Shown: positions 4,434 through 47,129 of the stretch, piece after piece
Layout: the number at the start of each line of letters is the position of its first letter
Position numbering within the stretch: the stretch's first letter is position 1
Source: a virus
Taxonomy: Duplodnaviria > Caudoviricetes
IMG/VR virus record: IMGVR_UViG_3300031992_000028
DNA length: 64,000 nt
Strand: one strand, 5' to 3'
Program-made: the position numbers and the translations under genes
Notes under the pieces: generated by a model
What the model was told of the DNA's origin: nothing
The model's input: the letters and a program-made list of their open reading frames with translations, nothing else
The model's database searches: none

Positions 4434-4447
4434 TTTTGCTAAATTAT
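4434..4447 (+). promoter_or_regulatory. Putative late promoter (TGCTAAATT)
   Basis: TTTTGCTAAATTAT; the motif recurs in about 12 intergenic positions. Confidence 0.7.
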
Positions 4448-4491
4448 ACGAGACTTAAAATAAAAATTATAAATTAAGGAGAATAAACTTT

Positions 4492-4914
4492 ATGGCAACA
4501 TTAAATTCTACACTTGTTAATGGAGACCTTACAGTCACTGGAACAATAGCTGCAGCTGGCTATAGCACAATTTCTGACCGCACTTTAAAGGAAAATATTA
4601 GAGCTTTTAAACCAGAAGCAACTATTTTAGATTTGCCAATTTATAAGTTTGATTATATAGCAGATAATAGACCTAAAAATCAAATTGGCTGTATTGCTCA
4701 AGATTTATTAGAGTTGTTTCCTGAACTTGTTGTTACAAATCAAGATGGAACCCTTGCTATTAAAGAAGCTAAATTAGTTTATCCGATATTAATTGAACTT
4801 AAAAAAACTAAAATAGAGCTTGATAACTTAAATAGTGAATTTTCAATTTTAAAGAAAGAATTTGAAGATTTAAAGAGACAAGTTAATGGTGAACCAAAAG
4901 AAATTTTAGAATAA
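4492..4914 (+). CDS. Stand-alone peptidase S74 / tail-fibre intramolecular chaperone domain protein
   Basis: SDRTLKENI autocleavage motif, IGCIAQDL..LFPELV, C-terminal coiled coil; AAGGAG RBS. Confidence 0.85.
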   Translation: MATLNSTLVNGDLTVTGTIAAAGYSTISDRTLKENIRAFKPEATILDLPIYKFDYIADNRPKNQIGCIAQDLLELFPELVVTNQDGTLAIKEAKLVYPILIELKKTKIELDNLNSEFSILKKEFEDLKRQVNGEPKEILE

Positions 4915-5443: not shown

Positions 5444-8400
5444 ATGACAGAATTTAAATATTGTATTTACTGTGGAACTGACCCTGAGCCAGTTTGTTTT
5501 GGCGCAGAAGCAGATGCTATGAAATTTGCTCGTGAAGAAACAAACACATGCAGTTCAGTTCGTGTTGAAAAAACAGAAATAGATGAAGATGGTAGTATTC
5601 TTAATAGCGAAGTTATTTGAGAAGCTAGTAATACTAACCCAGAAAACTTTGTAGCAGAAGACAACCCTTTTAAAACAGAATTTCCTAAATCTGATATTGA
5701 AGAAGTTGAAATCTCTGATGATGCTATGTATGATGAGATTGCTAAACAATATGAAGAAGGTTCAGAATGGCCAGCTGACGCAGATGAACCTGGTAGAGCA
5801 AGACCTGATTGGAAAAAGATTAAAGAAGCTATGGAAGATAATGAATCTGAAGTAGAATGTAAATGCTGTTTTGATTTATTCCCAAAAGAAACTTGTATTA
5901 AAACTGAAGATGGTTATATTTGTAAAAAATGTAATCAAGAGCTTCATTCACATCAAGGAACTAATTTAGATTTAATTGATGCAGACCCATTTGATTTATC
6001 TTATGATGATCCAAGAGACCCTGAAGAAGAGGAAGAGCCTGAAATTAAAGATGAACCTTTAGATGCTAATGAAGTTAGAAAACATGAAGCTGGTATTGAA
6101 GAAACACTTGAAGAGCATATCAATGATAGACCAGCTGATATTGAAAGTGAACAAGAATATCAAGGCGTTGACAATGCAGTTGTTGATTGCCCAGTTGCTA
6201 CAATAATTGCTCATAGTGAAGATGAAAAACCTCTTGACTGCGAAATGAAAAAACCAGCTCTTGAAGAGCCTTTAGCTGGTAAAGATGTTGATATTAAAGT
6301 TAATGAAGATTTGTCTGAAGAAGAGACAAAAGAATTAGATAAAGAAATTGAAACTTTAGAAGAAGAATTAAAAGTTATTGTTGACTTTAGTGATTATAAA
6401 CCATGGTCTGGTGCAGTTGATACCTATGACTTAATTAGAGATGCAGATAAATTAGATGACCTTGAAGCATATCTTGAAGAATGTTACCCAGATGGAATTA
6501 CTGCTACACAAATTAATGATATTCTTTGGTTTGATGGCGACCAAGTTTTAAGTTATCTTGGACTTGGCGATGCTGAAGATGAAGATGAAATTGATGAAAG
6601 CTTAAAAGAAGAAGCTAAAGATAATAAGATTAAACTTTATGGCTGTGATTTACCAAATACTTTATTAGACGATGATGAATGAATTATCATTGATGAAAAA
6701 GATAGAGACTTAGCCATTGAATTAGATAATAAAGTTGGTGAAATATTACAAGCGCAAGTTGATGAAAAAGGTGAACTAGACCCTGATTTCTATAACGTAG
6801 AAGAATTTGAAAAACTAGCAGATGAAGCCGGGCTAGAGTGGGAATTTGGTGCCACAAATCTTCAAACAGAAAATTTAGAAGAAGCCAAAAAAGATGATGA
6901 ATTACCAGTTGATCCAGAAGCTGCTAAACTCGAAGTTCATACTATGTTAAATGATTTAGTGGCCGATGAGATTGAAGCTATTAATGGTTATGAAGAAGCA
7001 AAGAAAGAAATTCTTGATGCACCAATTAATCACAAAGATGCTATTCTTGATACTGTTGATCATATTGAAGATGAAGAAAAAGAGCATGTTGATGAATTAA
7101 TTGATGCTACTACTGAAATTCCTTTTGATAAAGAAGAAGCTCCAGCTCCAGTAGTTGAAGAGCCAGTTGTTGAAGAGCCAGTTGTTGAAGAGCCTGTGGT
7201 TGAAGAGCCGGTTGTTGAAGAGGGCTTTGAAGACCAAAGAGCAAAAACTAAAAAATTTGCCGATGAGGTTAATGCAAAGAAATCGTGGAAAGTTTCAGAA
7301 CTTAAAGAATTAGCTGCTAAATATACTGTTCCACAAGTTGACTATGATTATATTACACTACACTATAATGGTGCAATCATCAATGAAAATTTAAATGAAG
7401 ACCCATTTGATCAAAGCTTCCCAGAAGTTGAAGAAAAGCTAGAAGAAAGAGCAATGGCTGACACCCCATTTGATAGTGATGTTAAAGTTGGTGACAAAAT
7501 TAGAATTGTTCATTTAGAAGGTGAAGATAATTCTTATGACGGTAAAGAAGGCGAAGTTGAACATATCGATTCTATTGGACAACTTCACGGAACTTGAGGC
7601 GGACTTGCTATTATTCCAGGCGTTGATGATTTTGATATTATTACAGAAGGCTTGACTGAACCTAAATATGACATATTTGATGACGGTCAACAAATTGGTC
7701 AAATAGAAGCTGCAGATGAAGAAGATGCTGTTAACCAATGTTATAATGGCGCTTTTGGAAGAAGCTCATCTGATAATTTATTTACAGCAGAATTAGCTGA
7801 AGAAAGTTTAACAGAAGCTAAAGCTAAACCAGAAGCTGATAAAGTTCAATGTTATAATGATGGCTTAAAGTTAGCAAAAGCATATAATAAGCCTGTTATT
7901 TATGGTTATACAAATAGTTCCTATGATGGTAAATTCTTCAAACTAGATGACCCAATTATTTGTGACAATGTTAGTGATGAAACTAAGAAATTTAAACAAC
8001 AATATAAGAGCTGTAATGTTGCTTATGTTGCATACCCAAGTGGTCAATTAGTTGAAAGCTTACTTGAAGATACTAATTCAAATGAGCATGAAACTTTTAC
8101 TGCTGAAGAGCAAGAAGAGTATAACTGTGATGAAGATGGTAACTGCTTAGATAGCTATGATACATTACACCACTGTGGCTGGTGTGGTGATGTCTTTACT
8201 GAATATGAAATGAGACATGAAGCTGACTTTGGTTGGATTTGTTCTAGATGCGAAGACGAATTAAAATCACATGGTGGCCCATTAACATTTATTGAAAATG
8301 AAGGGCTTAGTGAATTAACTGAAGCTAAACGTAAAGCTACTCCAAAACTAGATATTGTTTCAGTTGACGAATCTGTACAAGAGTCAGATGATCATGATCC

Positions 8401-8695
8401 TAAAAGACATATTCTTCGTGCAAGATTTTATGATCCACAGGAACCTACATTAATACCAAGAGTTAGCATGGAATTTGACTTTGTAAGGGACCTCGATAGT
8501 GAAGACCCTGATGCAAGAAAAGCAAATCCACACTATAAAAAATGGTTTGAATATAATTATAGAGCATATGATTATGACGGAAACTTATTACCTGATATAA
8601 ATCCTGATAGTGAAAGAACTGAGACTGAAAAGAGAATGCTTGGTAATATTCATAAAAAATTAGTAGATGATGGAATTATTGATAATAATAATTAA
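5444..8695 (+). CDS. 1083-aa acidic multidomain protein (TGA=Trp): Zn-ribbons, ferritin-like helical domain, PVVEE repeats, DUF4314-like domain; probable head-packaged protein
   Basis: AAGGAG RBS and ATG 5444. Three TGA join four same-frame fragments. Motifs DEIEAINGYE...EEKEH and VEHIDSIGQLHGT(W)GGLAIIPGVD; CxxC pairs. Confidence 0.8.
7148..7222 (+). repeat. 5 x 15-bp coding tandem repeat (PVVEE)
   Basis: CCNGTNGTTGAAGAG x5. Confidence 0.95.
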
Positions 8696-8855
8696 ATAAA
8701 TTATATCGTATATTATAACGAGTGAACAAAAAGCATTAAGGAGATAAGCCCCAGCTTAGTACTTGATGCGAACTCATTTTAATAGAAGTGCTCAAGAGCC
8801 TGATAGAACTGGTGGAGAGCACTGAGTAACTAAATAGAATTAGGAGATATTAAAA

Positions 8856-9332
8856 ATGAAGTATTACTCAGAAATTTTAAACAAAAACTTTGATTCAGTC
8901 GAAGATTTAGAAAAGGCTGAAGAAGAACACAAAGCTGAACAAGCTAAAAAAGAAGAAGCTAAAGCTTTAGTTAAGAAAGAATCCTCAGAAGTTGAAGACT
9001 CTTTTAAAGCAAGAAACGCTGCAAGAAAAGCTTATAACGAAAAACTCGTTGAAGCAAGAAAAATTTACAATGAAGCTTTAAGAAAAGCTAAAGATGAATT
9101 TGAGGCTAGCTTGAAAGAATCAACAGAAACTTTAGAAAAAGCTGAAGCTGATTATGACACTAGACTTAAAGCTTTCCAAAAAGCCCATCCAGAAGGTTAT
9201 CACATTACACTTAAAGATGGTGATAATGTTGTAACTTACACAAGTAATCAAATTGATTACCCAGTTAAAAGTATTAGTAAAGAATTTGATGATATATTAG
9301 ACTTATTCTCTAACTTACTTAGACGCTGGTAA
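8856..9332 (+). CDS. Coiled-coil hypothetical protein
   Basis: AGGAG RBS; K/E/A-rich helical sequence. Confidence 0.8.
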   Translation: MKYYSEILNKNFDSVEDLEKAEEEHKAEQAKKEEAKALVKKESSEVEDSFKARNAARKAYNEKLVEARKIYNEALRKAKDEFEASLKESTETLEKAEADYDTRLKAFQKAHPEGYHITLKDGDNVVTYTSNQIDYPVKSISKEFDDILDLFSNLLRRW

Positions 9333-9395
9333 TTAGCTTCTAAATTCTGGGGCTTAATAAAATAATAAAATATTAAAATATATTGTATAATATTA

Positions 9396-9504
9396 TGTGA
9401 GTTGAAGAGCTCACAAGTTCATAGTAGCGCTAAGGTAAAACTTAGCAATCCTCCCTTCAACAGCAGCTTATCACAATTCCTCCTGGTATGTTGCTGTTTT
9501 TCTT
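9396..9504 (+). ncRNA. Putative sRNA with two anti-SD (UCCUCC) motifs
   Basis: TTGTATAAT at 9383; two hairpins; AATCCTCCC; terminator hairpin with ATTCCTCCT in its loop; no ORF. Confidence 0.6.
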
Positions 9505-9516
9505 TTTGCTAAATTT
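9505..9516 (+). promoter_or_regulatory. Putative late promoter
   Basis: TTTGCTAAATTT. Confidence 0.6.
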
Positions 9517-9519
9517 AAT

Positions 9520-9573
9520 GGTCGGTCAAATAGCGCCATCACCTTCGCCACAGCTAAGTTGACCGGCTTTTTT
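9520..9573 (+). ncRNA. Putative hairpin sRNA with GCCATCACCTT loop
   Basis: GTCGGTCAA...TTGACCGGC stem plus T-run directly after a late-promoter motif; no ORF. Confidence 0.5.
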
Positions 9574-9606
9574 ATTTTAACTGAGAAGCTACTGAGAAGT
9601 GTTTCA

Positions 9607-9619
9607 TTTGCTAAATTAT
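9607..9619 (+). promoter_or_regulatory. Putative late promoter
   Basis: TTTGCTAAATTAT ahead of a TGA-rich operon. Confidence 0.7.
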
Positions 9620-9634
9620 TTGAGGTTTGCAAAA

Positions 9635-10057
9635 ATGCAGTGAAATAATGTTGATATAACTACCAAAGTAGCTATTACACGCTTTCTAAAAGTTAAAAAT
9701 AATTTACCAATTAAATTTATTTCAAGTAATTTTGCTGCAAGTGGCGAAAAACTTTATTACGCTTACTTTGAAGATACTAAATTATCTACATGATATAAAA
9801 GCATTAATTCGACACGAGAAGGTGTTTTTAGAGTAATTATTAACGAAGAATTTTTAAACTCTCAAACAAACGGCATTGATTTAGTTGCTAAGATACCAAG
9901 CAATATATCAGATGAAAAAAGAATCATTTTAAGAATCGCTTACTCTATTTTGGTAAATTGACAAAGAGCTGTTATTGAAGCTTATAAAACGGCAGAAAAA
10001 GATAGTAATAAAATTACTTATGCTAATGCTATGAATTGATATGAAGATTTAAAATAA
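9635..10057 (+). CDS. LRIAY-family paralog 1 (TGA=Trp)
   Basis: GAGG RBS; 140 aa with 4 TGA; IILRIAYSIL. Absent from the ORF track. Confidence 0.75.
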
Positions 10058-10058
10058 T

Positions 10059-10400
10059 ATGGCAAGATATAGTTTACAAGATGCACGTAGATATATAGTT
10101 CAAGCATTCATGAGACTTAATAAAGCTCGTGGTTTAAATTTAGCTTTACTTGATTTAGAGTATGCAGATTTAATGGGCTGAGATTTTATTAAAGCTCATA
10201 TGTATGATAAAACAACTCACACTAAGTTTGATAGTATGCTTAATGAGTTTATTTTTACCAGAGAAGATACTATGACAAATTTAGACACACAAGCTAAAAT
10301 ACTTGGAAAAAATCTAAATGAAAGAGAAAAAATTATTTTAAGAGTTGCTTATACTATTTGAAGAGACTGGAAGGAAACTAGAAATGTTGACGTGGACTAA
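10059..10400 (+). CDS. LRIAY-family paralog 2 (TGA=Trp)
   Basis: QAFMRLNKARGLNL...IILRVAYTI(W); 2 TGA. Confidence 0.75.
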
Positions 10401-10713
10401 TCAAGACTTAGATGATTTCTGTGAACAAGCAGTCGAGCTTTTAAATAAGAAAAAGCAATTACAATTAGAATTAAGAAATTGTTGGCTTTATTCAAATAGC
10501 TCTGGCAGTAATTTTCATATTATCTATCATAATAACTTTTTAGATAAAGATTTTCATTTATGTAGAAATGGTAGGATTTTGCAAGAAGGAACTATTGGTG
10601 TTGATAAAGTGGCCGAGCTAGAAAAAGTAGACGACATTAAATTAAAAATAGTTTTACGCATTGCATATTTTATTTATAAAGACTGTCAAAGAGAGATGAA
10701 GGAAGATAAATAA
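10384..10713 (+). CDS. LRIAY-family paralog 3
   Basis: QAVELLNKKKQLQL...IVLRIAYFIY. Confidence 0.75.
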   Translation: MLTWTNQDLDDFCEQAVELLNKKKQLQLELRNCWLYSNSSGSNFHIIYHNNFLDKDFHLCRNGRILQEGTIGVDKVAELEKVDDIKLKIVLRIAYFIYKDCQREMKEDK

Positions 10714-11240
10714 TGGCTAGAGAAGTCTCATTTATGTTTAAAGACCTTGAAGAGCTTGCTCAAATTAAAGCAGGTGTTTTAGGTTATCTTCAAAGAGATA
10801 TTAACAAGCTATTAAAAACAAAAGACTTAGATGCTGAATTTATAAATATTGCAACACCTGGAAAAGCTTATGGAAGGACTTGACTACTCTTTAAAGTTTA
10901 TTACACTTGCTATGATGACCAAGATGATATGTTAGGAAATTATACGCATGTTTTCTTTGCTTACCCTATTCAACAAAACTTATTTACAAGAGACCCAGAC
11001 ATGATGGACATTGTAGATGGACAAGCTAGAATTAAAGGAAGACAAGATAGATTAAGTGATATTGATTTAGTTAAGGTTAGAATTCTTTATCATATATTTT
11101 ATATTATTAAGTGTATTCAAGAAGATAATTTACCTGCAACCATTAAACTTCCTACTAAAAAATACATTGTAGTTGAATATGCCGATGCTGGAAACTTATT
11201 CTACGAGTTAAAAGATCATTTACCTGGGGGCTTTAATTAA
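10713..11240 (+). CDS. LRIAY-family paralog 4, divergent (TGA=Trp)
   Basis: TAATG coupling to the previous gene; one TGA; VKVRILYHIF. Confidence 0.7.
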
Positions 11241-11241
11241 T

Positions 11242-11991
11242 ATGGGATTACAACTTGGAATGAATGAATCATCAAACATTATTAGTCTAGCCATTAAAGC
11301 TACTGGAGAAAACTTGGATAGAGATTTTTATCATATTCATTCTGCACCAGGACATCAGGGCTTCTTTGTTGAAATTGCTGACCAGACACTTGAAGGCAAG
11401 CTCTCTGCAGTATCTAACGACTATGATAATGGTGATTTTGTTTTTACTTTAAATATACCATATGAGTATTTTAATGATGATCAATTGCCTGAAGATACTA
11501 AGCTTGGAATAAAACTTACAGACCACACTGAGGTAAAAGCTGAAATTAGATGTATGGGATTAATTGCTAAGACACACGAAGCATGACTTAAAGACCATGA
11601 AGTTTTTACCACAGAAGATTTAAGAAAAGTTATTAATGATGCTCTAGATAGATTAAGAAAAATTAAAAAATTAGATTTAATGGTCCATGGAAATAAAGGC
11701 GAAAAAGCTGAAAAATATGTTTCATTGTGGCTTACTGAAGGACATATTCCTGCGACTGGTGGAAGTTTTCTTGATAGATTTTTCCCAGTTGAGCTACATG
11801 TCTATGACTATTATATTGATGTGGGAAATCATGTAGTCGATGAATTAATTGGTGAAACTAACCTCCGTGGTAAAAGCAGACGAGAAGTTTGTCTATTAAG
11901 AGTAGCATATACTATTTATTCTGAATGTACTGGTTGGCTTCATAATAAATGACCAAAAGTTTTTAATGATTATGTAAACGGAGAGTTTTAG
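11242..11991 (+). CDS. LRIAY-family paralog 5, two tandem domains (TGA=Trp)
   Basis: Two TGA join 11242-11586 and 11680-11952; DALDRLRKIKKL...LLRVAYTIY. Confidence 0.75.
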
Positions 11992-12006
11992 TTAGGAGTT
12001 ATATGT

Positions 12007-12345
12007 ATGGATCAAGCACAAAAAGATTTACTAATTAAAGATGCTGAGAAATATAAAGCAGATGACTATTTAGCTAAAGCTGTTCAGCTTCTATTTAAGA
12101 ATAAAAAAATAAAAATAGAAATAGTTGCTCATGAATGAGATATTAGTAATGTCAGTGATAAGCTAATTTTTAAGCTATGATATTCTGCAGATGGTCATGA
12201 AGTAGTATTAAATATATTAGAAAGTGTTTTTAAAGATTATAATAGAGATGCAGATAAAGATATTGGAATTAAAAATGATTTGCCAATAAGCACTAAAATT
12301 ATTTTGAGACTTGCATATCTATTATACAAACATAGAAATGATTAA
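12007..12345 (+). CDS. LRIAY-family paralog 6 (TGA=Trp)
   Basis: AGGAG RBS; KAVQLLFKNKKI...IILRLAYLLY; 2 TGA. Confidence 0.75.
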
Positions 12346-12410
12346 CTGCTAAATTAAGTAACATAAATCATTTGCATGGTTTGAAAGGTGTCGAAAGGCA
12401 TCTTTTTTTA
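12346..12410 (+). ncRNA. Late-promoter motif, short ORF-less stretch and terminator
   Basis: CTGCTAAATTAA, then ~30 nt, then an AAAGGTGTC-GAAA-GGCATCTTTTTT hairpin. Confidence 0.35.
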
Positions 12411-12438
12411 TCTCCGGCTATTGTATAATATAATAAGT

Positions 12439-12969
12439 ATGTCCACAGAAGAATTAATTGAAAAGGCAGTAGAAAATTTAAATAGGGTTAAGCAATTAAA
12501 CCTAAAGATAACAGGCATATTATTACAGCTTGGCAATGATAATAATTTTTCTGTATCAATATTAGATAATGAAAGTGACTGCACATTTGACACTATTATT
12601 GATGAACAGGTTACTACTAAACAGCTGTTACCAGATGACCCTGTAAGTCTATCACCAGATACTATTATAATGCTGAGAATAGCTAAGCGTATATTTGAAG
12701 CTTATAAAAAATTTAAATCTAAACTTGTTGATGATAGCTTAACACTTAATGCTAACCAAACAATTAGTTCAATACAATGGGGTAATACTACTTATGATAT
12801 TGGAGTTAATGGTAGAAGCTTAACTGCAACATTTGATGAAGTAGATGAGCTAAAAAATAAGCTTAATAATTTACAAACTGAAAAAGATCACTTGGAACAA
12901 GAATTACAAAGCACAAAAGCAATAGTTGATTTACTCCTTCAACGATGCCAAGATAAAGGAATTCTATAA
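12439..12969 (+). CDS. LRIAY-family paralog 7 with C-terminal coiled coil
   Basis: Follows TTGTATAAT; KAVENLNRVKQL...MLRIAKRIF; no TGA. Confidence 0.75.
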   Translation: MSTEELIEKAVENLNRVKQLNLKITGILLQLGNDNNFSVSILDNESDCTFDTIIDEQVTTKQLLPDDPVSLSPDTIIMLRIAKRIFEAYKKFKSKLVDDSLTLNANQTISSIQWGNTTYDIGVNGRSLTATFDEVDELKNKLNNLQTEKDHLEQELQSTKAIVDLLLQRCQDKGIL

Positions 12970-13040
12970 ATTAGAAATTTGTAAAAAAACTATTTACAAG
13001 TTTCTTTTTTTATAGTATAATATAAATAGAGGTAATGAAT

Positions 13041-13436
13041 ATGTTTAGAAAAGCTACTAAGACAGAATTTAGAAATAAACAAGGCAAGTTAGCCAAAGAT
13101 ATTATTGACTGGCTTTTAAAGAAAGAAATCTTTGATGATACTTTTATTTATGTAAATGGCAAACGTTATGGAACCTATGATGGTGAAGGCCATTATAATT
13201 ATGGAACTAACTCTTGGGACAAAGTTTATGTAGAAGATAATAAAGACCCTAAAGACTACTTTGAATATGCAGGAAAGATTTTATCTATGTCTTTTGAGGG
13301 ACCACTTTATGATTTATTAAACTATGGCTTTGAGTGGAATAGCCATGCTGAAGATGAACTTAGAAATATCTTTCATAAATATGGCTATTACTTTGAACTT
13401 GGAAATGCTTGGAACTTAACAGCAGTGGAGGAATAA
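13041..13436 (+). CDS. Hypothetical early protein
   Basis: TTTACA..TATAAT promoter; GAGGT RBS. Confidence 0.75.
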   Translation: MFRKATKTEFRNKQGKLAKDIIDWLLKKEIFDDTFIYVNGKRYGTYDGEGHYNYGTNSWDKVYVEDNKDPKDYFEYAGKILSMSFEGPLYDLLNYGFEWNSHAEDELRNIFHKYGYYFELGNAWNLTAVEE

Positions 13437-13438
13437 TT

Positions 13439-13927
13439 ATGTTTCCAGATTTATTAGAAGCTCTTGGGGCTTATACTGATTACTATATGGACGACACAGA
13501 CCCAGAGGTTAAAGACGCATTTAAAAAAATACTTAAAGATATGTGGCATGAGAAAGCTATAAAGTATGTAGATGATACCGGTGAGATTACTGGTGAAGCT
13601 CGTGCTATTTTAGAAAAGGCTTTACAATTACTTCATAAAAATAAAAACATTCATCTCAGATTTGATTTGAATTCTGAAAATTGCAGCATGCGTCATATGC
13701 AAGACCCAAGAAGTTTAAGTTCACAAATAACTTTACAATTTGAAGTAAAAGAAGGCTTAGCTAAACAATCTATTAAAGCTACCTTTAATAAAGAAGTTTT
13801 TACTGCTAATTGGTTACCAACTGATGATTATGCTAGTATCTCAAATAAAATTAAAGCCTTAGATACTACAACCTATCGTGGTATTAGACTTGCTTATATT
13901 ATCTATCAAGCAATTAAAAATAATTAA
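13439..13927 (+). CDS. LRIAY-family paralog 8
   Basis: GGAGG RBS; KALQLLHKNKNI...GIRLAYIIY. Confidence 0.75.
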   Translation: MFPDLLEALGAYTDYYMDDTDPEVKDAFKKILKDMWHEKAIKYVDDTGEITGEARAILEKALQLLHKNKNIHLRFDLNSENCSMRHMQDPRSLSSQITLQFEVKEGLAKQSIKATFNKEVFTANWLPTDDYASISNKIKALDTTTYRGIRLAYIIYQAIKNN

Positions 13928-13991
13928 TTTTATTATTTACATACACATTTATTTGTGATATAATATTAATAGAAAGTTGAGGTTAACAACT

Positions 13992-14657
13992 ATGGAAAAA
14001 GAATATCAGAAAATTGGAAATGTATTTAAGTTCGATGAAAAGTTTAGAACTATTGTTGGTTTAAATGAACCTTATGAAACTTTAAAGAACATTATTTGGC
14101 AAGGCACTGAAAAGATTGACGGAACTAACATTCGTATTCATTGGGATGGCCATGACATCGAATTCGCTGGTCACACAGATAAAGCACAAATTCCACCAAA
14201 ACTTCAAGCTTACTTAGAGTCTGTGTTCAAAGTTCCAGAAATGGAATATATTTTTGAACAAGTCTTTGGTGAATCTGAAGCTTATATCTTTGGTGAAGGT
14301 TTTGGTGCTGGAATTCAAAAGTCTGGCGGAGACTATGTAGAAAACGGAACTGATGTTTCTTTCATTGTCTTTGATGTTCAAATCGATGGTTGGGACCTTG
14401 ATAGAAAAAATACTACAGATGTCGCTACTAAACTTGGCTTACCTTCTGTCCCTGTTTGCTTTGAAGGAACTTTAGACGAAGCTAAAGCTTATGTTGCTGA
14501 ACATCATATGTCTACACTTAATGGCGGAAAACATGAAATGGAGGGCTTAGTCTTAGTGCCTCGCGATATTCAATTATATGACAAGAAGCATCACCTCATC
14601 AAGTGCAAATGCAAGTATAGAGATATGGTTCGTGCTGGCTTAGTTGAGGAGAAATAA
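13992..14657 (+). CDS. RNA ligase (Rnl2-like nucleotidyltransferase domain)
   Basis: TEKIDGTN, FGEG, FDV, EGLV and terminal KxK motifs; no OB domain. Confidence 0.85.
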   Translation: MEKEYQKIGNVFKFDEKFRTIVGLNEPYETLKNIIWQGTEKIDGTNIRIHWDGHDIEFAGHTDKAQIPPKLQAYLESVFKVPEMEYIFEQVFGESEAYIFGEGFGAGIQKSGGDYVENGTDVSFIVFDVQIDGWDLDRKNTTDVATKLGLPSVPVCFEGTLDEAKAYVAEHHMSTLNGGKHEMEGLVLVPRDIQLYDKKHHLIKCKCKYRDMVRAGLVEEK

Positions 14658-14659
14658 TT

Positions 14660-14995
14660 ATGAGCTTAGATGCAAAAGTTTATATTGGCTATGGCATTGA
14701 TATTGGCTATGACAGATTTACCGAATATGAAGAGCGAGTAGACTATATGTATGACTTTGAAAGAAACGATGGTACTGAACTTGTTATTGATGGAATGAGC
14801 GGAAATTACGCACTTATCATGAGTGTCATTGATGTAGTTGAAGACCTTTATGGCGGTAGCGATGAAGTGCTAGCGCTTGAAATTACAGATAAAGCTGAAG
14901 TAGTTGAGAAGCTTAAAGCTGCTTATAAAGAAATTACTGGTGAAGATGCTAGTGATGAAAACGTCAAACTTTATAGAGTTGTTTGGGTTGGTTAA
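14660..14995 (+). CDS. Hypothetical protein
   Basis: GAGGAG RBS; in operon. Confidence 0.75.
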   Translation: MSLDAKVYIGYGIDIGYDRFTEYEERVDYMYDFERNDGTELVIDGMSGNYALIMSVIDVVEDLYGGSDEVLALEITDKAEVVEKLKAAYKEITGEDASDENVKLYRVVWVG

Positions 14996-14996
14996 T

Positions 14997-15470
14997 ATGA
15001 AGATTTATATTGCTGCAAGTTTCGCATATGAAGATAAGGCTAAGACCAGCCAAAAGAAAGACTTAATTGAGAAGACAGTCAAAAGAATTAAGAAATTTCT
15101 AAAAGGCGATTACTATTTGCCACATCAACTAAAGATTCCAAATGCTTGGGACATTAGTTTAGAAGAATGGTCAAGAGCTGTATATGAGCATGATATGAAA
15201 GCACTTGAAGAGTCTGAAGTAGTAATCTTCTTAAGTTTTGGCAAAGAGAATAATGCTGGCTCAGCTTGGGAAATGGGGTATGTTCATGGGTTTAATTTAC
15301 ATGAGCAAGTTCATTTTCCAAAAACAGTTGTTGTAGTAAAGATGACTGATGAGCCTGAAAGTCTTATGATTAGTAATTCAGTAGATAGAATTATTATGAG
15401 TAATGAAATTGAAACCTATGATTGGAAGACACTTCCAAAATATAAAACAGCTTTAGAAAAATTAAGTTAA
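14997..15470 (+). CDS. Nucleoside 2-deoxyribosyltransferase / nucleotide N-hydrolase-like protein
   Basis: MKIYIAASF...D...L..S..V...GSAWEMGY. Confidence 0.7.
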   Translation: MKIYIAASFAYEDKAKTSQKKDLIEKTVKRIKKFLKGDYYLPHQLKIPNAWDISLEEWSRAVYEHDMKALEESEVVIFLSFGKENNAGSAWEMGYVHGFNLHEQVHFPKTVVVVKMTDEPESLMISNSVDRIIMSNEIETYDWKTLPKYKTALEKLS

Positions 15471-15474
15471 TAAT

Positions 15475-15642
15475 ATGAGACAGTGGAAGATAGAAAGAAT
15501 AGCAACTTTTGATGATGAAGAGCTCGCTAATTTTATTACTGAGATAGACAATAGACCTGGCTGTGAAGTTAAAGAAGTAATATTTATTGGTAATAACACA
15601 GTAAAAGTTAGACTCTATCAAATCTTATATATAGAGGACTAG
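15475..15642 (+). CDS. Hypothetical protein (55 aa)
   Basis: ATG-to-TAG ORF filling the operon gap. Confidence 0.6.
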   Translation: MRQWKIERIATFDDEELANFITEIDNRPGCEVKEVIFIGNNTVKVRLYQILYIED

Positions 15643-15644
15643 AA

Positions 15645-15914
15645 ATGAAAGTGAGTGAATTAATTCATCTACTACAAAAATACCCAGATAAAGAAGTTAT
15701 AGTAAGAATTGGTAATGGCTTATTTTGTCCAGTAGAGCTAGTAAAACTCTTTGATGGAAACATTATTATAGTAGGGAAAGACCTAAAAGTCTCTGACAAA
15801 TGTGTTGATTTTGAGCCTTTGAAGTTCGAGACTTCTGTCGAAAAGCTCTATATTATAGATAATAAGAAATATGACTTCCGCCAAAATACACTCATAGTAG
15901 TATGAAGATTTTAA
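15645..15914 (+). CDS. Hypothetical protein (terminal TGA; TAA three codons later)
   Basis: GAGGA RBS; MKVSELIHLLQKYP..EV, a common phage N-terminus. Confidence 0.7.
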
Positions 15915-16039
15915 GACTTCTGTCAAAAGCAGAAGTTTTTTCTTTATTTAAAACTGAATCTCCGTCAGTCTGGCCCCAAGTAATTAAGAAATTGGGCGAA
16001 GCCCTTTTGAGGTGAAAAAATTGCCTTTGAGTCAATTTA

Positions 16040-16052
16040 TTTGCTAAATTAT
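16040..16052 (+). promoter_or_regulatory. Putative late promoter
   Basis: TTTGCTAAATTAT. Confidence 0.7.
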
Positions 16053-16069
16053 ACAAAGAGTAAAGCTTT

Positions 16070-16510
16070 ATGGATAAGATTTCAGAACTTCAACAACATA
16101 GAAACAAACTACTTGAGGGAAACAATTTAAGTACTTCAATTGCCAAGATGATCAGAGTCAAAGACCTTCCAGCTACCTTTCACTCAGCTACCACAATTGC
16201 TGGCCGAGATGGTAAGACCGAGATAGTGTTGGAGCTCTTCATTGATGTATTGAACACAGAGAAAATTGCAAGAGTTTATTTATACCTTACTGAGGACCTT
16301 TTTGACCCAGATAGCTTTAGTTATATAGATGGTGAAATAGGCCTTGGAGATAAGAAAATAGACATAGACGATTTCATTAAACTTAGAGCTCTTCGAACAG
16401 TATATAATGTAATAAGAAATATAAGCACTGGTTATGCAAATGCAGTCGACCCAAATAAAATAATATATGTCAGAACTCGATGAACAGGTATGTGTGATTA
16501 TAGTAATTAA
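16070..16510 (+). CDS. LRIAY-family paralog 9, divergent (TGA=Trp)
   Basis: IKLRALRTVY; reads through TGA 16481 to TAA 16510. Confidence 0.65.
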
Positions 16511-16522
16511 GGCGGTAATAAT

Positions 16523-16909
16523 ATGACAGACAGTGAATTTAGAACAAGAAAAATGATAGTCTTGAGGGCAATAGCAGCCTTACAAAAACGCTTAGTTATT
16601 AAGGTAGAAGCCTCAGATATTTATATAAAACATGATAATATAATGGTTGATTTTATATATACAGATAGTATTAATTTTAATCCACCAGTAGATAAAAAGA
16701 TAACTTTAGGCTTCAGTAATAAATGATTTAATACAGAAGATTGGCTTACACAAGGTCAATTTGGAGATAGTTGAATGAAACAAAATTTTGAAGACACAGA
16801 AGCCCATATATCATCTAGTGCTGCTATGTCAGAAGAAGATAAAGCAGTCTTACGTATTGCTTACCAATTCTTTAGATATCTTAAGCCATATAAAGAATTT
16901 CTTAAATAG
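16523..16909 (+). CDS. LRIAY-family paralog 10 (TGA=Trp)
   Basis: The family motif AVLRIAYQFF lies after two TGA. Confidence 0.75.
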
Positions 16910-16911
16910 TT

Positions 16912-17292
16912 ATGAATTACCCATATAGACCCCAAAAAGAATGAGACATAATAAATATAGTTAAGAAAGCTATTAGGACCTTAAATAAGAAAAAAGGTGC
17001 TAATTTTAAGATGCGTAATATTAGCTTTGGTTTAGGTGTAGATGATAAGTATGGCTCAGGACAATTAGATACTACAGTAAGCTTAACAGTGCAAGATACA
17101 GTAAGTAAAAAGACAATAAAATTATTCTGGTATGAAAGCTTCTTTAATGCTGAATTACCAGACGATAAAGATGAAGTAGCAGGAGTAAATAAAGTAAGCA
17201 AACCAGAAGACAAAGTATTACTTAGAATTGCTTATAGCATTTGGTTCTGCAGACACTGAATGAGCTCACCACAAAAGAAAAATATAAAATAG
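16912..17292 (+). CDS. LRIAY-family paralog 11 (TGA=Trp)
   Basis: KAIRTLNKKKG...VLLRIAYSIW; 2 TGA. Confidence 0.75.
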
Positions 17293-17402
17293 TTTTAAAA
17301 TAATCTGCTATAATTAATTGAAGGTTGTTAAAAAGGGTGAAATAGGTTTCACTCAAAATATCCTTCTTTTTTTATACTCTTTTGCGCCGTATAATATAAT
17401 GT

Positions 17403-17834
17403 ATGAACTTTAATGTTATAGACCAAGCGGTGAAGTTAGTAAGAGATAAATTCAAGATAGATTTTATCGTTAACAATTATACACTAGAGACAGACCCAGA
17501 AGAAGTAATGATGTTTGGTGATGGTAATAAGCTTAGACTTCATAGAGAGCCAGAGCTTAAGATGACAATCACTGTAGTAGAAGACTATACTTCTTGGACC
17601 GAGCATACAGATTTAGATTATGTAATATTCGGTAGTGATATACAAGACGGAAGCTTAGTAGACGAAGTCATTGGTGGAAACATCAAAGGTTATGACTTAG
17701 CTATGAGGCAAGCTCTGAGACTCGCCTTCATCATATATAATGGAATCCAATATGGTGTAAAGAGAGAGCAACGAAAAGATTATATAGACAAAGGTTGGCA
17801 CCCAAGAGTGGTAAGTGTAAGAATGAGATACTAA
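17403..17834 (+). CDS. LRIAY-family paralog 12 (leaderless)
   Basis: DQAVKLVRDK...ALRLAFIIY; no TGA. Confidence 0.7.
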   Translation: MNFNVIDQAVKLVRDKFKIDFIVNNYTLETDPEEVMMFGDGNKLRLHREPELKMTITVVEDYTSWTEHTDLDYVIFGSDIQDGSLVDEVIGGNIKGYDLAMRQALRLAFIIYNGIQYGVKREQRKDYIDKGWHPRVVSVRMRY

Positions 17835-17890
17835 AAAATATCTCATTTTTTTATTTACTTTTAAAGGCAACTATGGTATAATATAAATGT

Positions 17891-18955
17891 ATGAGTAAGA
17901 TTATCGGAACTTGTTTAGGAGAATATGTAAAAGAAGAAGATGTTTTTTATGATCCTCTAACTGACATATATAAGATAAAGGCTGGAGATAGACTAGTGGA
18001 AATTGATGGCCACGCTTTGCAGTCTGAGAGTCTAAGAACTTTACAGGAAGCCTTAAGTAATGTAGACGACGAAAACATTAAGATAGATATGTTAGGCAGT
18101 TGGGCTAAGGCGAGAAGTAATCCGACATATATAGATTCAAACTCTACATTCATCGATACTCAGGTTCCTTATACAGCGAAAGAGATAACTGACAAACTAC
18201 AAGAAGCGGTGAGCAACTTGAGTAGCAAAACATCGGCTGCGGGGCTGGCTGCAGGAGCGCCTTTTGACAGTCAGAGCCAAGACCCCTTGCGTGCGCGCGT
18301 TGAAGCAGCCGGAGCTTATGTCAGACCAGCAGACCCAGGAAGCTGGAGCGTCCGCTTCACCGACAAAGCCGCCGAGAAGCTTAGGGCGAACAGCGTTTAT
18401 GGCCTCGGAAGCGCACAAGCCCACACCTCGGCGCCCTGGGACGATCCGCTAGCTGCCGACTTGACGAAAGCTCAGAATACTGTAGCTTGTATAGATATGC
18501 CAGACTATAGACCAGACTATAACCCTAATGCGAGAGTTGATATATATTATCATGATAGATTTCCTTCTATACCATTTAAGTCTATTATAGAGGACGCGAT
18601 TGAATTACTAAATAAAAATAAAAATTTACATATATCTAAAATTTCTTTACATAATGAAAAATTTAGTAACTATGATATATCTCTTACATTCTCGGCCGAT
18701 CATCCGACATCCCCAGGACTTAGAAAAGTTTTAGAAGTATTATTTACACATACGGCGTTCGACCGAGCTTACAAAACAGACTTAGATAAGAATGCAGGAC
18801 TTAGAGCAAAGCTTGATACAAATACTTATATGAAACTTAGAATTGCTTTCTTACTATATGAGGCTCTGAAACTTAATGATGCAGACGCCAAAAAGATACA
18901 CTTAGACATCTTTAGAATATTTGCAAGCGACACAAGACCAAATTTCCATATTTAA
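17891..18955 (+). CDS. LRIAY-family paralog 13 with long N-terminal extension
   Basis: DAIELLNKNKNLHI...MKLRIAFLLY at the C-terminus; early-type promoter. Confidence 0.75.
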   Translation: MSKIIGTCLGEYVKEEDVFYDPLTDIYKIKAGDRLVEIDGHALQSESLRTLQEALSNVDDENIKIDMLGSWAKARSNPTYIDSNSTFIDTQVPYTAKEITDKLQEAVSNLSSKTSAAGLAAGAPFDSQSQDPLRARVEAAGAYVRPADPGSWSVRFTDKAAEKLRANSVYGLGSAQAHTSAPWDDPLAADLTKAQNTVACIDMPDYRPDYNPNARVDIYYHDRFPSIPFKSIIEDAIELLNKNKNLHISKISLHNEKFSNYDISLTFSADHPTSPGLRKVLEVLFTHTAFDRAYKTDLDKNAGLRAKLDTNTYMKLRIAFLLYEALKLNDADAKKIHLDIFRIFASDTRPNFHI

Positions 18956-19027
18956 AACTTATTTAAGGCCGTCACAACAAACAAAACAGCATAAGCCAGG
19001 ATAAAATTATATCTTGGCTTTTTTCGT

Positions 19028-19241
19028 GCCCCAAAACGCCCCGTTTTGCTTTTTGCCCGAAATTGGTACGTTTTCGTTTTTTAGCTTTTCTGAATTTGCC
19101 CCGTTTTCGTTACTGGCCAGATCCGCGATCCAGGGCGTCCGAAATTAGTACGTTTTCAAAAACCGAAATCACCCCAGTTTCAAAAAGCCGAAATCAGTAC
19201 GTTTTCAAAATAGCCAATTTGGGGCGATTTCGTTTTGGGGC
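19028..19241. repeat. Direct-repeat (iteron-like) cluster enclosed by an inverted repeat
   Basis: CCGAAATYRGTACGTTTTC at 19057, 19139, 19188 (variant at 19163); GCCCCAAAACG ... CGTTTTGGGGC flanks. Confidence 0.85.
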
Positions 19242-19327
19242 AGATAAAATACCTACTTAATATAAAAAGTGTCACAGAATGCGTTTGTGACATGTCTGTG
19301 ACTATTCTAAGCTTTTGCCATATAACT

Positions 19328-19617
19328 AAAAGAAAAGCGACGACTCAGAGCCTGGATTTAAGAGAGAGGTGATGGCTCGTTGTGTGTCGTCGCCGGCTAA
19401 GAGGACATTGTGGGTGACCGGTTAGCCTTGAAAGGAGGTAATTGTCATAAGGGGATTTGACTCGCTAAACTGCCCGAAACCTAATGACTTGATTCTGTTT
19501 GTGATTCTGTTTAAATTACGTATCGTTAGTTTTTTTGACACTCTATTGATTACCTATCGTTATACGTATCGTCTGAGGCATTCCTTTTCATTATTGGCAG
19601 TTTTTCGGTTGCCTCAT
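19328..19617 (-). ncRNA. Putative ~290-nt structured sRNA with several anti-SD motifs
   Basis: Minus-strand TTGTATAAT (19623-19631); hairpins; ATTACCTCCTTTC, GTCCTCTT, GCCATCACCTCTCTCTT; terminator GCGACGAC...GTCGTCGC-TTTTCTTTT. Confidence 0.65.
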
Positions 19618-20115
19618 ACTATATTATACAACTAAAAATTATTTTTTAACAACTTTTTTCAAATTTAGGCAATTTCAGCTTCACATGTGTGCGTGTGTGG
19701 CGGCGCGCCAGTATTCTTAAACGTTAGAAGAATACCGCGCGTGGCCATGTGCGTGCGTATACACCAAAGCTTTCAAACTAAGGCAATTTCAAATTGAGCT
19801 GATTTCAAACGCAGGTCGACTTTAGCTTATATATTTTTTTATTTAAATAAAATAAATATATAAGTTAAAAAGTGCTCAAAGTGGGTTAATTTGTAAAAAA
19901 AGTTAAAAAAACTATTTACAGCTATTTACTTTTGTGCTATAATATTGTTATAATGGGGAGTGTTTTTTTATAAAAAAATAAAAAAGCCCTTAAATTAGCA
20001 TAGTTCAGGCTGTATAATATAATAGGGAATAAAATGAAATTGTTCCAATTTCATTTATGTGTGCGCAAGCACACACGTGTAATACTAAAAAAATTCATTA
20101 CTAAATCAGGGTGTT

Positions 20116-39435: not shown

Positions 39436-39449
39436 TTTTGCTAAATTAT
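39436..39449 (+). promoter_or_regulatory. Putative late promoter
   Basis: TTTTGCTAAATTAT 5 nt before the ATG (leaderless). Confidence 0.7.
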
Positions 39450-39454
39450 ACAGT

Positions 39455-41191
39455 ATGAACATATTAGAAGCTTATAATATTCTTAATACTTTATATGAAG
39501 ATTATTCTGATGGCTATCTTGAAATTGCAAAGCCAATTAATTTAAAAGATTGCAGAGAGATAGTTTCAGATGTTTTAGATATTCGTAATGAATTAGAAGC
39601 CAGCGCTTGTTTAGACTATAATGGAGTATTAACCAGAGTTGCAGCAAAAGTACTTATTTTTAGAGACGGCTTAGAAGGAAAAGAAGTATTGCTTAGACTT
39701 TGAAGAACTGCCGTTTATTTACCTGGCGGCGGTTTTGATCTTAAAAAAGATAATTATAATATAGTCAATACCGTTAAACGTGAAGTAGAAGAAGAAATAA
39801 ACTTAGTCATAGATAATATTAGACCAACTAGCTTTAACTATTGAAGATATGATAATAAAGCTTGAGTTAGCAACCATGTAGAAAAAGAAGAAGATAGATG
39901 GCTAGGTTATTATAATTATTTATTTACCGCTGATTATAAAACCACTGGAGACAATGATTTGCCTGAAGAAGCTGGAAGATACAGATGGCATAAAGTTTCT
40001 GATATTTTAGCTAGGCCAGACACAAAAGAACTTGCTTGCATTAAAAAAGCTATCATTGAGAATGGTTATGCAGATTTAAATGAGGGTTTATTGACTGAAG
40101 GCAAATCAGTCGGTTCAGTGAGCTATTTTGTTCATGATACTAAAGGACAACCAGCTATTACTGGCTTAGCCAAGATTTTAACTTCAGAAACTATTTTGGC
40201 TTCAACAGAAAGTGATAGTTCAAAGTATATTTCTACGTCAAGAGATTTAATGTCGCATGCTGGATCAACTTGAAAATGTGGTCTTATTTTAGATGGAGAC
40301 AAGATTTCAAATAGATATAAAGTCAATCCAATAAATAAAAATAGTATGATTTATTTTGGGCTGACAGCTGATAGCACAAAACAATTACAGTTACGAGCTA
40401 TTTCTAAATATGTTGCAGATGATAACCCAGAGTTATGCTTTTATTGCATTGATTTAAATGGCAGTCGTTTCTTTACTGAAATTTCAGAACAAACATATAA
40501 TATCTTTAAAGATATTATGTTAGCTTTTAATGCCCAACTTGCCGTTCAAAATCAAGAACCTGGAAAGGGTGGATTAGATAAATATAAAGGGAGAACAAAC
40601 AGCGATGTTAAAAAATATTCTGATCAGCATCCTGTTAGATATAATCGTCATATAATGCCTGATAAGCTTCCAGCAGACAAACGAGATCATGCCTGACATT
40701 GTGTTGAGTCATGTGGGTACAATGTTGAAAACTCTAACCTAGTTTTAAAGTTATCTGAATTGGGCAATTATAAAGATTTAATTTTTGAAAAACATGGTAT
40801 TGATATAACTACAGCTGAATTTTTCAGACAATTTGCAGGACAATATGTAGATGAATCAGAAGAACGTATTGTTGCAAAATTAATTAAAGATGTAGACAAA
40901 CTTGGAGAAGTAGTAGAGGGAGATACTGATATTTATGGTTTAAATATTTCCGGGTGTATTCAGGCAATTTTAATTAATATTAAGCATAAACCGGCCTTTG
41001 AAAATACTAACAGTGAAAAGCTTCCAAAATTAGCTGATGATAACGGAAATATTACAACTAAGGTTGATAATATTCCAAATATTAGACAGATAGCTAAAAT
41101 AATAAAAGACTATGCAAAACGTCATTCTATTCCAATAATTTTTTGAAATAATACTACTACAAATAATGATATACTGAAACAAGTAAACTAA
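39455..41191 (+). CDS. 578-aa Nudix hydrolase fused to an ADP-ribosyltransferase-like domain (TGA=Trp)
   Basis: Six TGA join four same-frame fragments. Nudix box PGGG...TVKREVEEEINL. Then YFVH...YISTSR...LDGDKISNRYKV...ESEER. Confidence 0.7.
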
Positions 41192-47053: not shown

Positions 47054-47129
47054 CTGCTAAATTAAATACAAAACAGGCCGTTTAGACCAAATCTAGGCGG
47101 CTTTATTTTATTTAAAATTGGCTAAATTT
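47054..47129 (+). promoter_or_regulatory. Two late-type motifs around a hairpin, upstream of nrdD
   Basis: CTGCTAAATTAA; GCCGTTTAGA..TCTAGGCGGC hairpin; TTGGCTAAATTT. Confidence 0.55.

Follow-up and report, generated by a model that had tools for sequence, protein, structure and literature searches.

Thirteen neighbouring genes in a 64,000-nucleotide stretch of phage DNA (IMG/VR record IMGVR_UViG_3300031992_000028, Caudoviricetes; "the window" below means this whole stretch, which was analysed at its full length) encode a single family of small proteins. What is new here is an unnamed family and fold for which we found no characterised relative, together with a conserved division of its members by promoter type and by decoding; accessory families that have expanded in large phages are, as such, familiar. 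The DNA comes from an uncultured phage of the gut or rumen in which TGA encodes tryptophan, and all genes in the window lie on the + strand.

The family, whose genes we number m1 to m13 in order, occupies positions 9635-18955. Translated with genetic code 4, 13 open reading frames (ORFs) in this interval share an N-terminal helix with the pattern A-[IV]-x-x-L-x-K-x-K-x-L and a C-terminal helix with the pattern L-R-I-A-Y-x-I-Y, and the part between the two helices varies from member to member. The m5 gene carries two copies of the domain (m5a and m5b), which brings the total to 14 domains of ~110 residues in 13 genes. A six-frame scan of the whole window with a family profile, built with the window's own domains included, returned the same 14 domains, all inside 9614-18952, and no further family domain elsewhere in the 64 kb; the copy count given for the source phage covers this window. 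Leave-one-out profiles recovered 12 of the 14 domains, with E-values from 3e-5 to 3e-17, whereas m12 was marginal (E 0.009) and m5a was missed (E 2.2). Both m12 and m5a are supported by the profile that contains them and, in addition, by a conserved ortholog or an AlphaFold model; the predicted fold of m5a is the same as that of m5b and m3, and m5a keeps the Asp and Arg residues that mark the family. A preliminary description of this DNA had proposed 13 genes and about 14 domains joined by the two helix motifs, with two divergent members. The ORFs, the profile scan, and the leave-one-out test all agree with it, and the leave-one-out test identifies the divergent pair as m5a and m12, with m10 the next weakest.

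The fold was modelled for three domains (m3, m5a, and m5b), and the other members were placed by alignment. The AlphaFold2 model of m3, computed with an alignment of 141 domains, has a predicted local distance difference test score (pLDDT) of 95.7 and a predicted template modelling score (pTM) of 0.88, and comprises a helix (residues 6-23), three strands (28-38, 41-50, and 55-62), two short helix turns, and a second long helix (85-108). The m5 model (91 sequences, pLDDT 92.4, pTM 0.79) contains two such domains, the first with an extra helix. The family is therefore predicted to fold as a helix, three antiparallel strands, and a helix, with both helices packed on one face of the sheet. All three modelled domains are alike, and the unrelated folds that would have spoken against a single family were not seen.

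Conservation among the 141 domains follows this predicted architecture. The conserved columns, in m3 numbering, are I13, A16, I17, L20, K24, L26, L46, Y48, F57, I61, and F66 in the first half and D74 (97%), A77, G78, I79, L91, R92 (98%), I93, A94, Y95, I97, and Y98 in the second, and they are spaced as are residues that face the core in two helices and three strands. The Asp in the loop after strand 3 and the Arg in the last helix are invariant in all 14 window domains; we infer that D74 and R92 form a pair that fixes the long linker onto the last helix. Outward-facing strand positions and loops are variable across the same 141 domains. The window members range in net charge from -13 to +9 and in isoelectric point (pI) from 4.6 to 9.7, and several have additions to the domain: a coiled coil in m7, C-terminal tails in m1, m4, and m9, a 220-residue N-terminal arm in m13, and a second domain in m5. 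The earlier picture of a fixed scaffold that is varied on the outside thus holds, with conserved core columns on the one hand and diverse exposed positions, charges, and extensions on the other. Site-wise variability among 86 m5 orthologs revealed no sharp hypervariable patch, and no catalytic-type constellation of residues is conserved across the family. A homodimer prediction with two copies of m3 scored 0.00, which counts neither for nor against binding.

The members fall into two classes by promoter. TGCTAAATT, an extended -10-like motif (TGnTAAATT) without a -35 element, heads two units with nine genes between them, and the other four (m7, m8, m12, and m13) lie behind sigma-70-type or TATAAT promoters. 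In-frame TGA codons occur in m1, m2, m4, m5, m6, m9, m10, and m11, and are absent from m3, m7, m8, m12, and m13. Counted over codons, the ratio of TGA to TGG is 16/8 in members of the TGCTAAATT units versus 0/8 in the other four (Fisher p=0.0024). The same division by promoter class is found at orthologous positions in the relatives L001, L004, and L008 (24/7 versus 0/7, p=0.0003), a fourth relative, L009, behaves alike, and the class of each paralog is identical in the two phages placed on the tree (the window and L001). The preliminary description had reported nine members in such operons, eight of them with TGA, and four TGA-free members behind other promoters. These counts are confirmed, with m3 as the TGA-free member of the nine and the other promoters sigma-70-type in form, and the occurrence of one family in both classes proves to be conserved in relatives.

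Comparison of orthologs indicates that TGA is tryptophan inside the family. TGA and TGG are exchanged between the window and L001 at residues 163 and 232 of m5 and residue 44 of m6, and TGA and TAC at residue 41 of m2. The other TGA of m2 falls in the last helix, at a column where 80% of the 141 family domains have an aromatic residue (Tyr, Phe, or Trp). All 13 genes end in TAA or TAG, none in TGA.

The first TGCTAAATT unit begins with the motif at 9609-9617 and holds m1 to m6; the orthologous unit in L001 is preceded by the same motif, at 9294. Its genes are m1 (9635-10057; 140 amino acids (aa), four in-frame TGA codons, pI 9.2, with a C-terminal tail and a leave-one-out E-value of 4e-9), m2 (10059-10400; 113 aa, two TGA codons, one of them in the aromatic column of the last helix), m3 (10384-10713; 109 aa), m4 (10713-11240; 175 aa, one TGA, with a C-terminal tail), m5 (11242-11991; 249 aa, two TGA codons, tandem domains at about residues 1-120 and 121-249), and m6 (12007-12345; 112 aa, two TGA codons). 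The L001 ortholog of m2 (9334-9675) is 67% identical, database orthologs of m4 are likewise 175 aa long, and m3, the minimal domain that was used for the model, is TGA-free in L001 as it is in the window. At its end the unit has another TGCTAAATT (12347-12355) and, after it, a hairpin that resembles a terminator (12383-12406).

Beyond this hairpin, a TG-preceded TATAAT (12424-12429) lies 9 nucleotides (nt) before the ATG of m7 (12439-12969; 176 aa), a leaderless-looking spacing, and the TATAAT arrangement at 16293 in L008 matches it; m7 consists of the domain and then a C-terminal coiled coil. A sigma-70-type promoter (TTTACA-17-TATAAT, 11/12 matches, 12993-13021) serves the unit of an unrelated 133-aa gene (13035-13436) and m8 (13439-13927; 162 aa), in which the domain forms the C-terminal ~115 residues. 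The second TGCTAAATT unit starts with the motif at 16042-16050, which is also found before the ortholog in L001 (13967) and L009 (282), and comprises m9 (16070-16510; 146 aa, one TGA, with a C-terminal tail), m10 (16523-16909; 128 aa, two TGA codons, among the weaker members with a leave-one-out E-value of 3e-5), and m11 (16912-17292; 126 aa, two TGA codons, pI 9.7). The divergent m12 (17403-17834; 143 aa) has its own sigma-70-type promoter (17371-17400, 10/12), whose TATAAT stands immediately 5' of the ATG and which is conserved in L001 and L009. A further sigma-70-type promoter with an extended -10 (17854-17882, 10/12) precedes m13 (17891-18955; 354 aa), and in both m12 and m13 the TATAAT is 7-9 nt 5' of the ATG. 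A terminator-like hairpin at 18993-19020 closes the cluster, and another is found at 15913.

In m13 an N-terminal extension of ~220 residues precedes the domain, which is C-terminal (18560-18952), and this layout with the domain last recurs in relatives of 200-506 aa. Within the N-terminal arm, positions 18190-18460 encode a G+C-richer stretch rich in Ala, Gly, and Pro that is absent from the 271-aa L001 ortholog and may be an insertion or a disordered linker; the G+C content of the 18001-20000 bin is 39%, versus about 31% around it.

The form of the motifs suggests that TGCTAAATT is a late promoter dependent on a phage factor and that the others are early promoters of host type. Start codons lie unusually close to both kinds of promoter. 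Translation would start 7-9 nt after the TATAAT in m7, m12, and m13 (12424-12441, 17395-17405, and 17877-17893) and in L008 (about 16275-16295), and 7 nt after TGCTAAATT for a 578-aa NUDIX protein (39439-39457) and at 15704 in L008. No Shine-Dalgarno sequence is present between the TATAAT or TGCTAAATT and these starts, and this, together with the short spacing, points to mRNAs with little or no leader in both promoter classes.

Searches with sequence profiles found no characterised family, in line with the preliminary description, which had not recognised one. Pfam, PHROGs, NCBIfam, and PADLOC gave no family match, only coiled-coil noise from the tail of m7 and single sub-threshold hits, and profiles searched against PDB sequences gave nothing below E 0.14. 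None of the 17 longer fused forms has a Pfam domain, and the N-terminal arms of 36 long members gave sub-threshold noise alone. The proposed AlphaFold and Foldseek check yielded confident models and no convincing structural relative. Foldseek against the PDB returned nothing at E<=1e-3, the best match being YfiA/HPF (E 0.07, TM score 0.41-0.50), and the exhaustive structure aligner VIA reached Z-scores of at most 5.5 for m3 and 5.2 for m5, which are at or below background for such models; AcrIF-type chains appear in the VIA results at Z 4.4-4.5 only. In BFVD the matches were uncharacterised viral proteins alone (E>=3e-3), and the ESM Atlas feature search gave unnamed viral clusters below 0.9 or nothing. 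In deposited phage genomes, neither megablast of the region nor tblastn of m13 and of a 409-aa recoded protein found a match. When 185,579 bacterial and archaeal reference genomes were scanned with a pattern for the m13 subfamily, no relative appeared; the pattern did match one IMG/VR contig.

The family is nonetheless well represented in environmental assemblies. The profile matched 335 clusters at 90% identity among 5.8 billion proteins and 167 representatives at 50% identity among 1.84 billion proteins, all from ENA, Logan, or JGI assemblies; two representatives are labelled "hypothetical protein" and the rest are unnamed. Among the matches listed, clusters resemble orthologs of single window members, and more than 80 of them are m5-like, with 246-255 aa. 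Database copies of m5 and m9 occur on one 137,581-base contig.

Copy number ranges from 0 to 13 among phages that have the neighbouring RNA ligase in common. The window has 13 family genes and L001 has 10 (11 domains). A 90-kb ENA contig probably has about nine copies, judged by matching gene lengths, the 10.6-kb fragment L009 has five, and L008, of which 20 kb were read, has at least four, two of them beside tail-fibre genes. One copy is present in L004, whose RNA ligase is 96% identical, and none in three IMG/VR contigs that share the RNA ligase at 76-97%, one of which is a complete 148-kb genome. In the family tree, nine ortholog pairs between the window and L001 are strongly supported, whereas the paralogs are joined by deep, poorly resolved branches; m8 groups with m13. 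Orthologs of these two phages are 44-75% identical, and their nonsynonymous divergence (dN) is 0.14-0.42, versus 0.018 for the SNF2 helicase and 0.17 for the RNA ligase. Pairwise ratios of nonsynonymous to synonymous divergence (dN/dS) are 0.09-0.46, values that are rough because dS is saturated. Judged by these comparisons, the paralogs are old, each maintained under purifying selection, fast-evolving, and gained or lost as blocks.

The comparison of copy number and dN/dS in relatives, which the preliminary description had proposed, thus leads to a narrower account of the "expansion" and "diversified" surface that it had envisaged. The many copies and their diversity are real, but they are not a recent burst, given deep paralogs, each with its conserved ortholog. 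Since the paralogs are deep and maintained, "diversified" is to be read as old differences that have been kept, not as demonstrated positive selection.

The array is situated in a hypervariable accessory stretch between a tail-fibre/DUF4314 module and the replication genes. Beyond the family, the window encodes a LamG tail fibre (1357 aa, 21 in-frame TGA codons), the DUF4314 protein, a SNF2 helicase, NrdD, a DNA ligase, and a CCA-adding enzyme. Unrelated genes interrupt the cluster at 13035-13436 and 13992-15914; they encode the 133-aa protein, an RNA ligase, a nucleoside 2-deoxyribosyltransferase, and three small ORFs. The sigma-70-type RNA-ligase unit ends with an 89-aa ORF (15645-15914) in which one TGA stands three codons ahead of the TAA. 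In this unit, which is poor in TGA, the host code may use that TGA as the real stop, and the protein would then have one C-terminus before the code change and another after it. In the close relative L004, other genes take the place of most of the array (7438-9936), one of them encoding an 832-aa protein in which a helicase-like motif (GTGLGKS) is combined with repeated modules at the C-terminus; the stretch between the 158-aa coiled-coil gene and the RNA ligase is thus freely exchanged. A separate 140-aa ORF with an intramolecular-chaperone (Peptidase_S74) domain (4437-4914) lies 3' of the LamG fibre gene, behind a TGCTAAATT of its own; relatives carry the S74 domain within the long fibre protein.

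Before m1 there is a 302-nt gap (9333-9634, + strand) that is conserved in four phages (L001 9024-9333, L004 5284-5706, and L008 15270-15703, besides the window) and folds far more stably than its shuffles (z -5.0). It contains, in order, ATTGTATAAT, an RNA-like element of ~115 nt, TGCTAAATT, a second hairpin with a T-run, and TGCTAAATT again. The ~115-nt element forms three hairpins, in one of which L004 shows compensatory changes; it also has two CCUCC motifs, both conserved, and a terminator, and it looks like a small RNA of anti-Shine-Dalgarno type at this flank of the cluster. Rfam has no match to this element, nor to any other part of 9000-19500.

As to function, we tentatively favour the view that the family members are non-enzymatic binding modules for host takeover or counter-defence, and we put this at somewhat less than an even chance. 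The proteins would be small and phage-specific, all built on one ~110-residue scaffold, and each paralog would bind a target of its own. We prefer this view because of the accessory behaviour of the genes, their RNA-repair neighbours, the lack of a catalytic signature, and the varied charges and appendages. With host-type promoters and no TGA, m7, m8, m12, and m13 could be made by unmodified host machinery. The eight TGA-bearing members, all in TGCTAAATT units, need TGA to be read as Trp and would hence be completed only after the phage has altered decoding, and the whole would amount to a repertoire of takeover or counter-defence binders acting at two stages of infection. A more specific proposal is that the genetic code itself divides the repertoire, with four members readable by the host at takeover and eight once TGA means Trp, such that the code change and the phage promoter together form a timing lock for a second wave of binders directed against defence or late-acting host factors; we regard this elaboration as unlikely.

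Several points weigh against these proposals. Pfam and the structure libraries show no fusion to a known domain and no structural relative with a known partner, and no member is tied by its sequence to a host or defence protein. Most members belong to the promoter class that also drives virion genes, which is unusual for takeover proteins. The timing assigned to the two promoter types is presumptive, and one TGCTAAATT site, at 47055, stands before NrdD, a gene that has no TGA. The old paralogs are under purifying selection and lack the visible site-by-site turnover of many arms-race proteins. A conserved core with a variable surface is seen in any old, fast-evolving family and is by itself no proof of diversity in binding. 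The absence of enzymatic activity, the binding, the targets, the timing, and the link to defence are all features that we infer.

The shared promoter class raises an alternative in which the TGA-bearing members are virion-associated or assembly proteins, such as accessory parts of the fibre or baseplate, decoration proteins, or injected proteins packed in the head, that would be produced along with the structural proteins, and the four TGA-free members are derived regulators. Nine of the 13 genes have TGCTAAATT and TGA use in common with the tail-fibre gene and other large recoded genes, and two L008 members sit between tail-fibre genes and the DUF4314 protein. The absence of most or all copies from close relatives is, however, unlike the behaviour of core structural parts, four members have host-type promoters, and a reading of the translations reveals no common targeting peptide at the N-termini of the late members. 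We consider a virion role quite improbable. A role as subunits, in which the conserved helices would join members to each other or to a single shared phage partner and the array would supply interchangeable parts of one assembly in place of independent binders, draws on the helices being the conserved part of the fold, on the confident mutual arrangement of the two fused domains in the m5 model, and on the coiled coil of m7. Yet the conserved helix positions appear, by their spacing, to face the core, and a copy number of 0 to 13 between relatives leaves no fixed stoichiometry apparent; we hold such an assembly to be very improbable.

The lowest probability, in our estimate a slight one, goes to a nucleic-acid or ribosome binder resembling HPF/YfiA or a double-stranded RNA-binding domain (dsRBD), which would act through Lys and Arg residues of the helices and whose paralogs would tune transcription or translation, possibly including TGA decoding. 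Among the weak structural matches, ribosome hibernation factors occur most often (in Foldseek as given above; in VIA Z 4.5-5.5, with root-mean-square deviations of 3.9-4.5 A over 80-86 residues), K24, R92, and K102 are conserved, and conserved structured RNAs flank the cluster. Like HPF/YfiA/RaiA (PF02482), the family has two helices on one face of a small antiparallel sheet, but HPF has the order strand, helix, three strands, helix, whereas the family model starts with a helix, lacks the first strand, and has three strands only. None of the 14 domains matches PF02482 at E<=0.1, the structural scores (TM at most 0.50) are within the background for small alpha/beta models, and the members, which range from strongly acidic to basic, are not uniformly basic. 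R92 is suspected to be paired with D74 inside the fold, and 13 paralogs are hard to fit to a single ribosomal site. The dsRBD shares the element order of helix, three antiparallel strands, and helix, but the Foldseek match is weak (E about 0.1, TM 0.26-0.28) and no dsRBD match was found in Pfam at E<=0.1. Family domains are ~40 residues longer, with strands of 8-11 residues and a conserved 22-residue linker before the last helix, and their conserved columns do not correspond to the motifs of dsRBDs. HPF and dsRBD are not demonstrated relatives, and the arrangement that they share with the predicted fold is that of a common two-layer alpha/beta sandwich.

The array has partial parallels among known systems. 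The hyperplastic regions of T4-like phages and the takeover and counter-defence sets of large phages contain short genes of unknown function in variable stretches that separate conserved modules. The genes described here are similar to T4-like hyperplastic genes in their presence or absence between close relatives and in their RNA-repair neighbours, but differ in that one fold accounts for 13 neighbouring genes, with two promoter types and two decoding needs, and no homology to any T4 protein family was found in PHROGs. In bacteria, SUKH-type poly-immunity loci contain many adjoining paralogs of one small scaffold that diverge at their surfaces, each presumed to neutralise a different protein. 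The resemblance to them is one of analogy only, as the present array is phage-borne and no sequence or structural link was found. A parallel in decoding is provided by recoded gut and rumen phages, which likewise confine in-frame TGA to some gene blocks and keep replication genes TGA-free. Recoded phages have been described to keep early genes readable by the host code, and a TGA-recoded lineage from cattle, "Agate", has genomes of ~127 kb (bioRxiv 10.1101/2021.08.26.457843). The split by code and promoter seen here fits this published model of host-readable early genes (bioRxiv 10.1101/2021.08.26.457843). The main text of that paper does not use the word "paralog", and in the window the code split runs within one family.

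Unnamed small genes abound in large uncultured phages of the gut and rumen. With these results, 13 of them reduce to one confidently modelled fold without a named relative, and the profile and the two invariant residues offer a handle for annotating about 167 sequence clusters. Should members prove to inhibit host systems, new binders could be drawn from this one compact array; should they not, the family would still be a defined domain of unknown function that deserves a database entry. Because adjoining paralogs of the same fold differ systematically in promoter and TGA use, and do so in relatives as well, the family also allows the idea that stop-codon recoding sets the timing of gene expression to be checked against a clean internal control.

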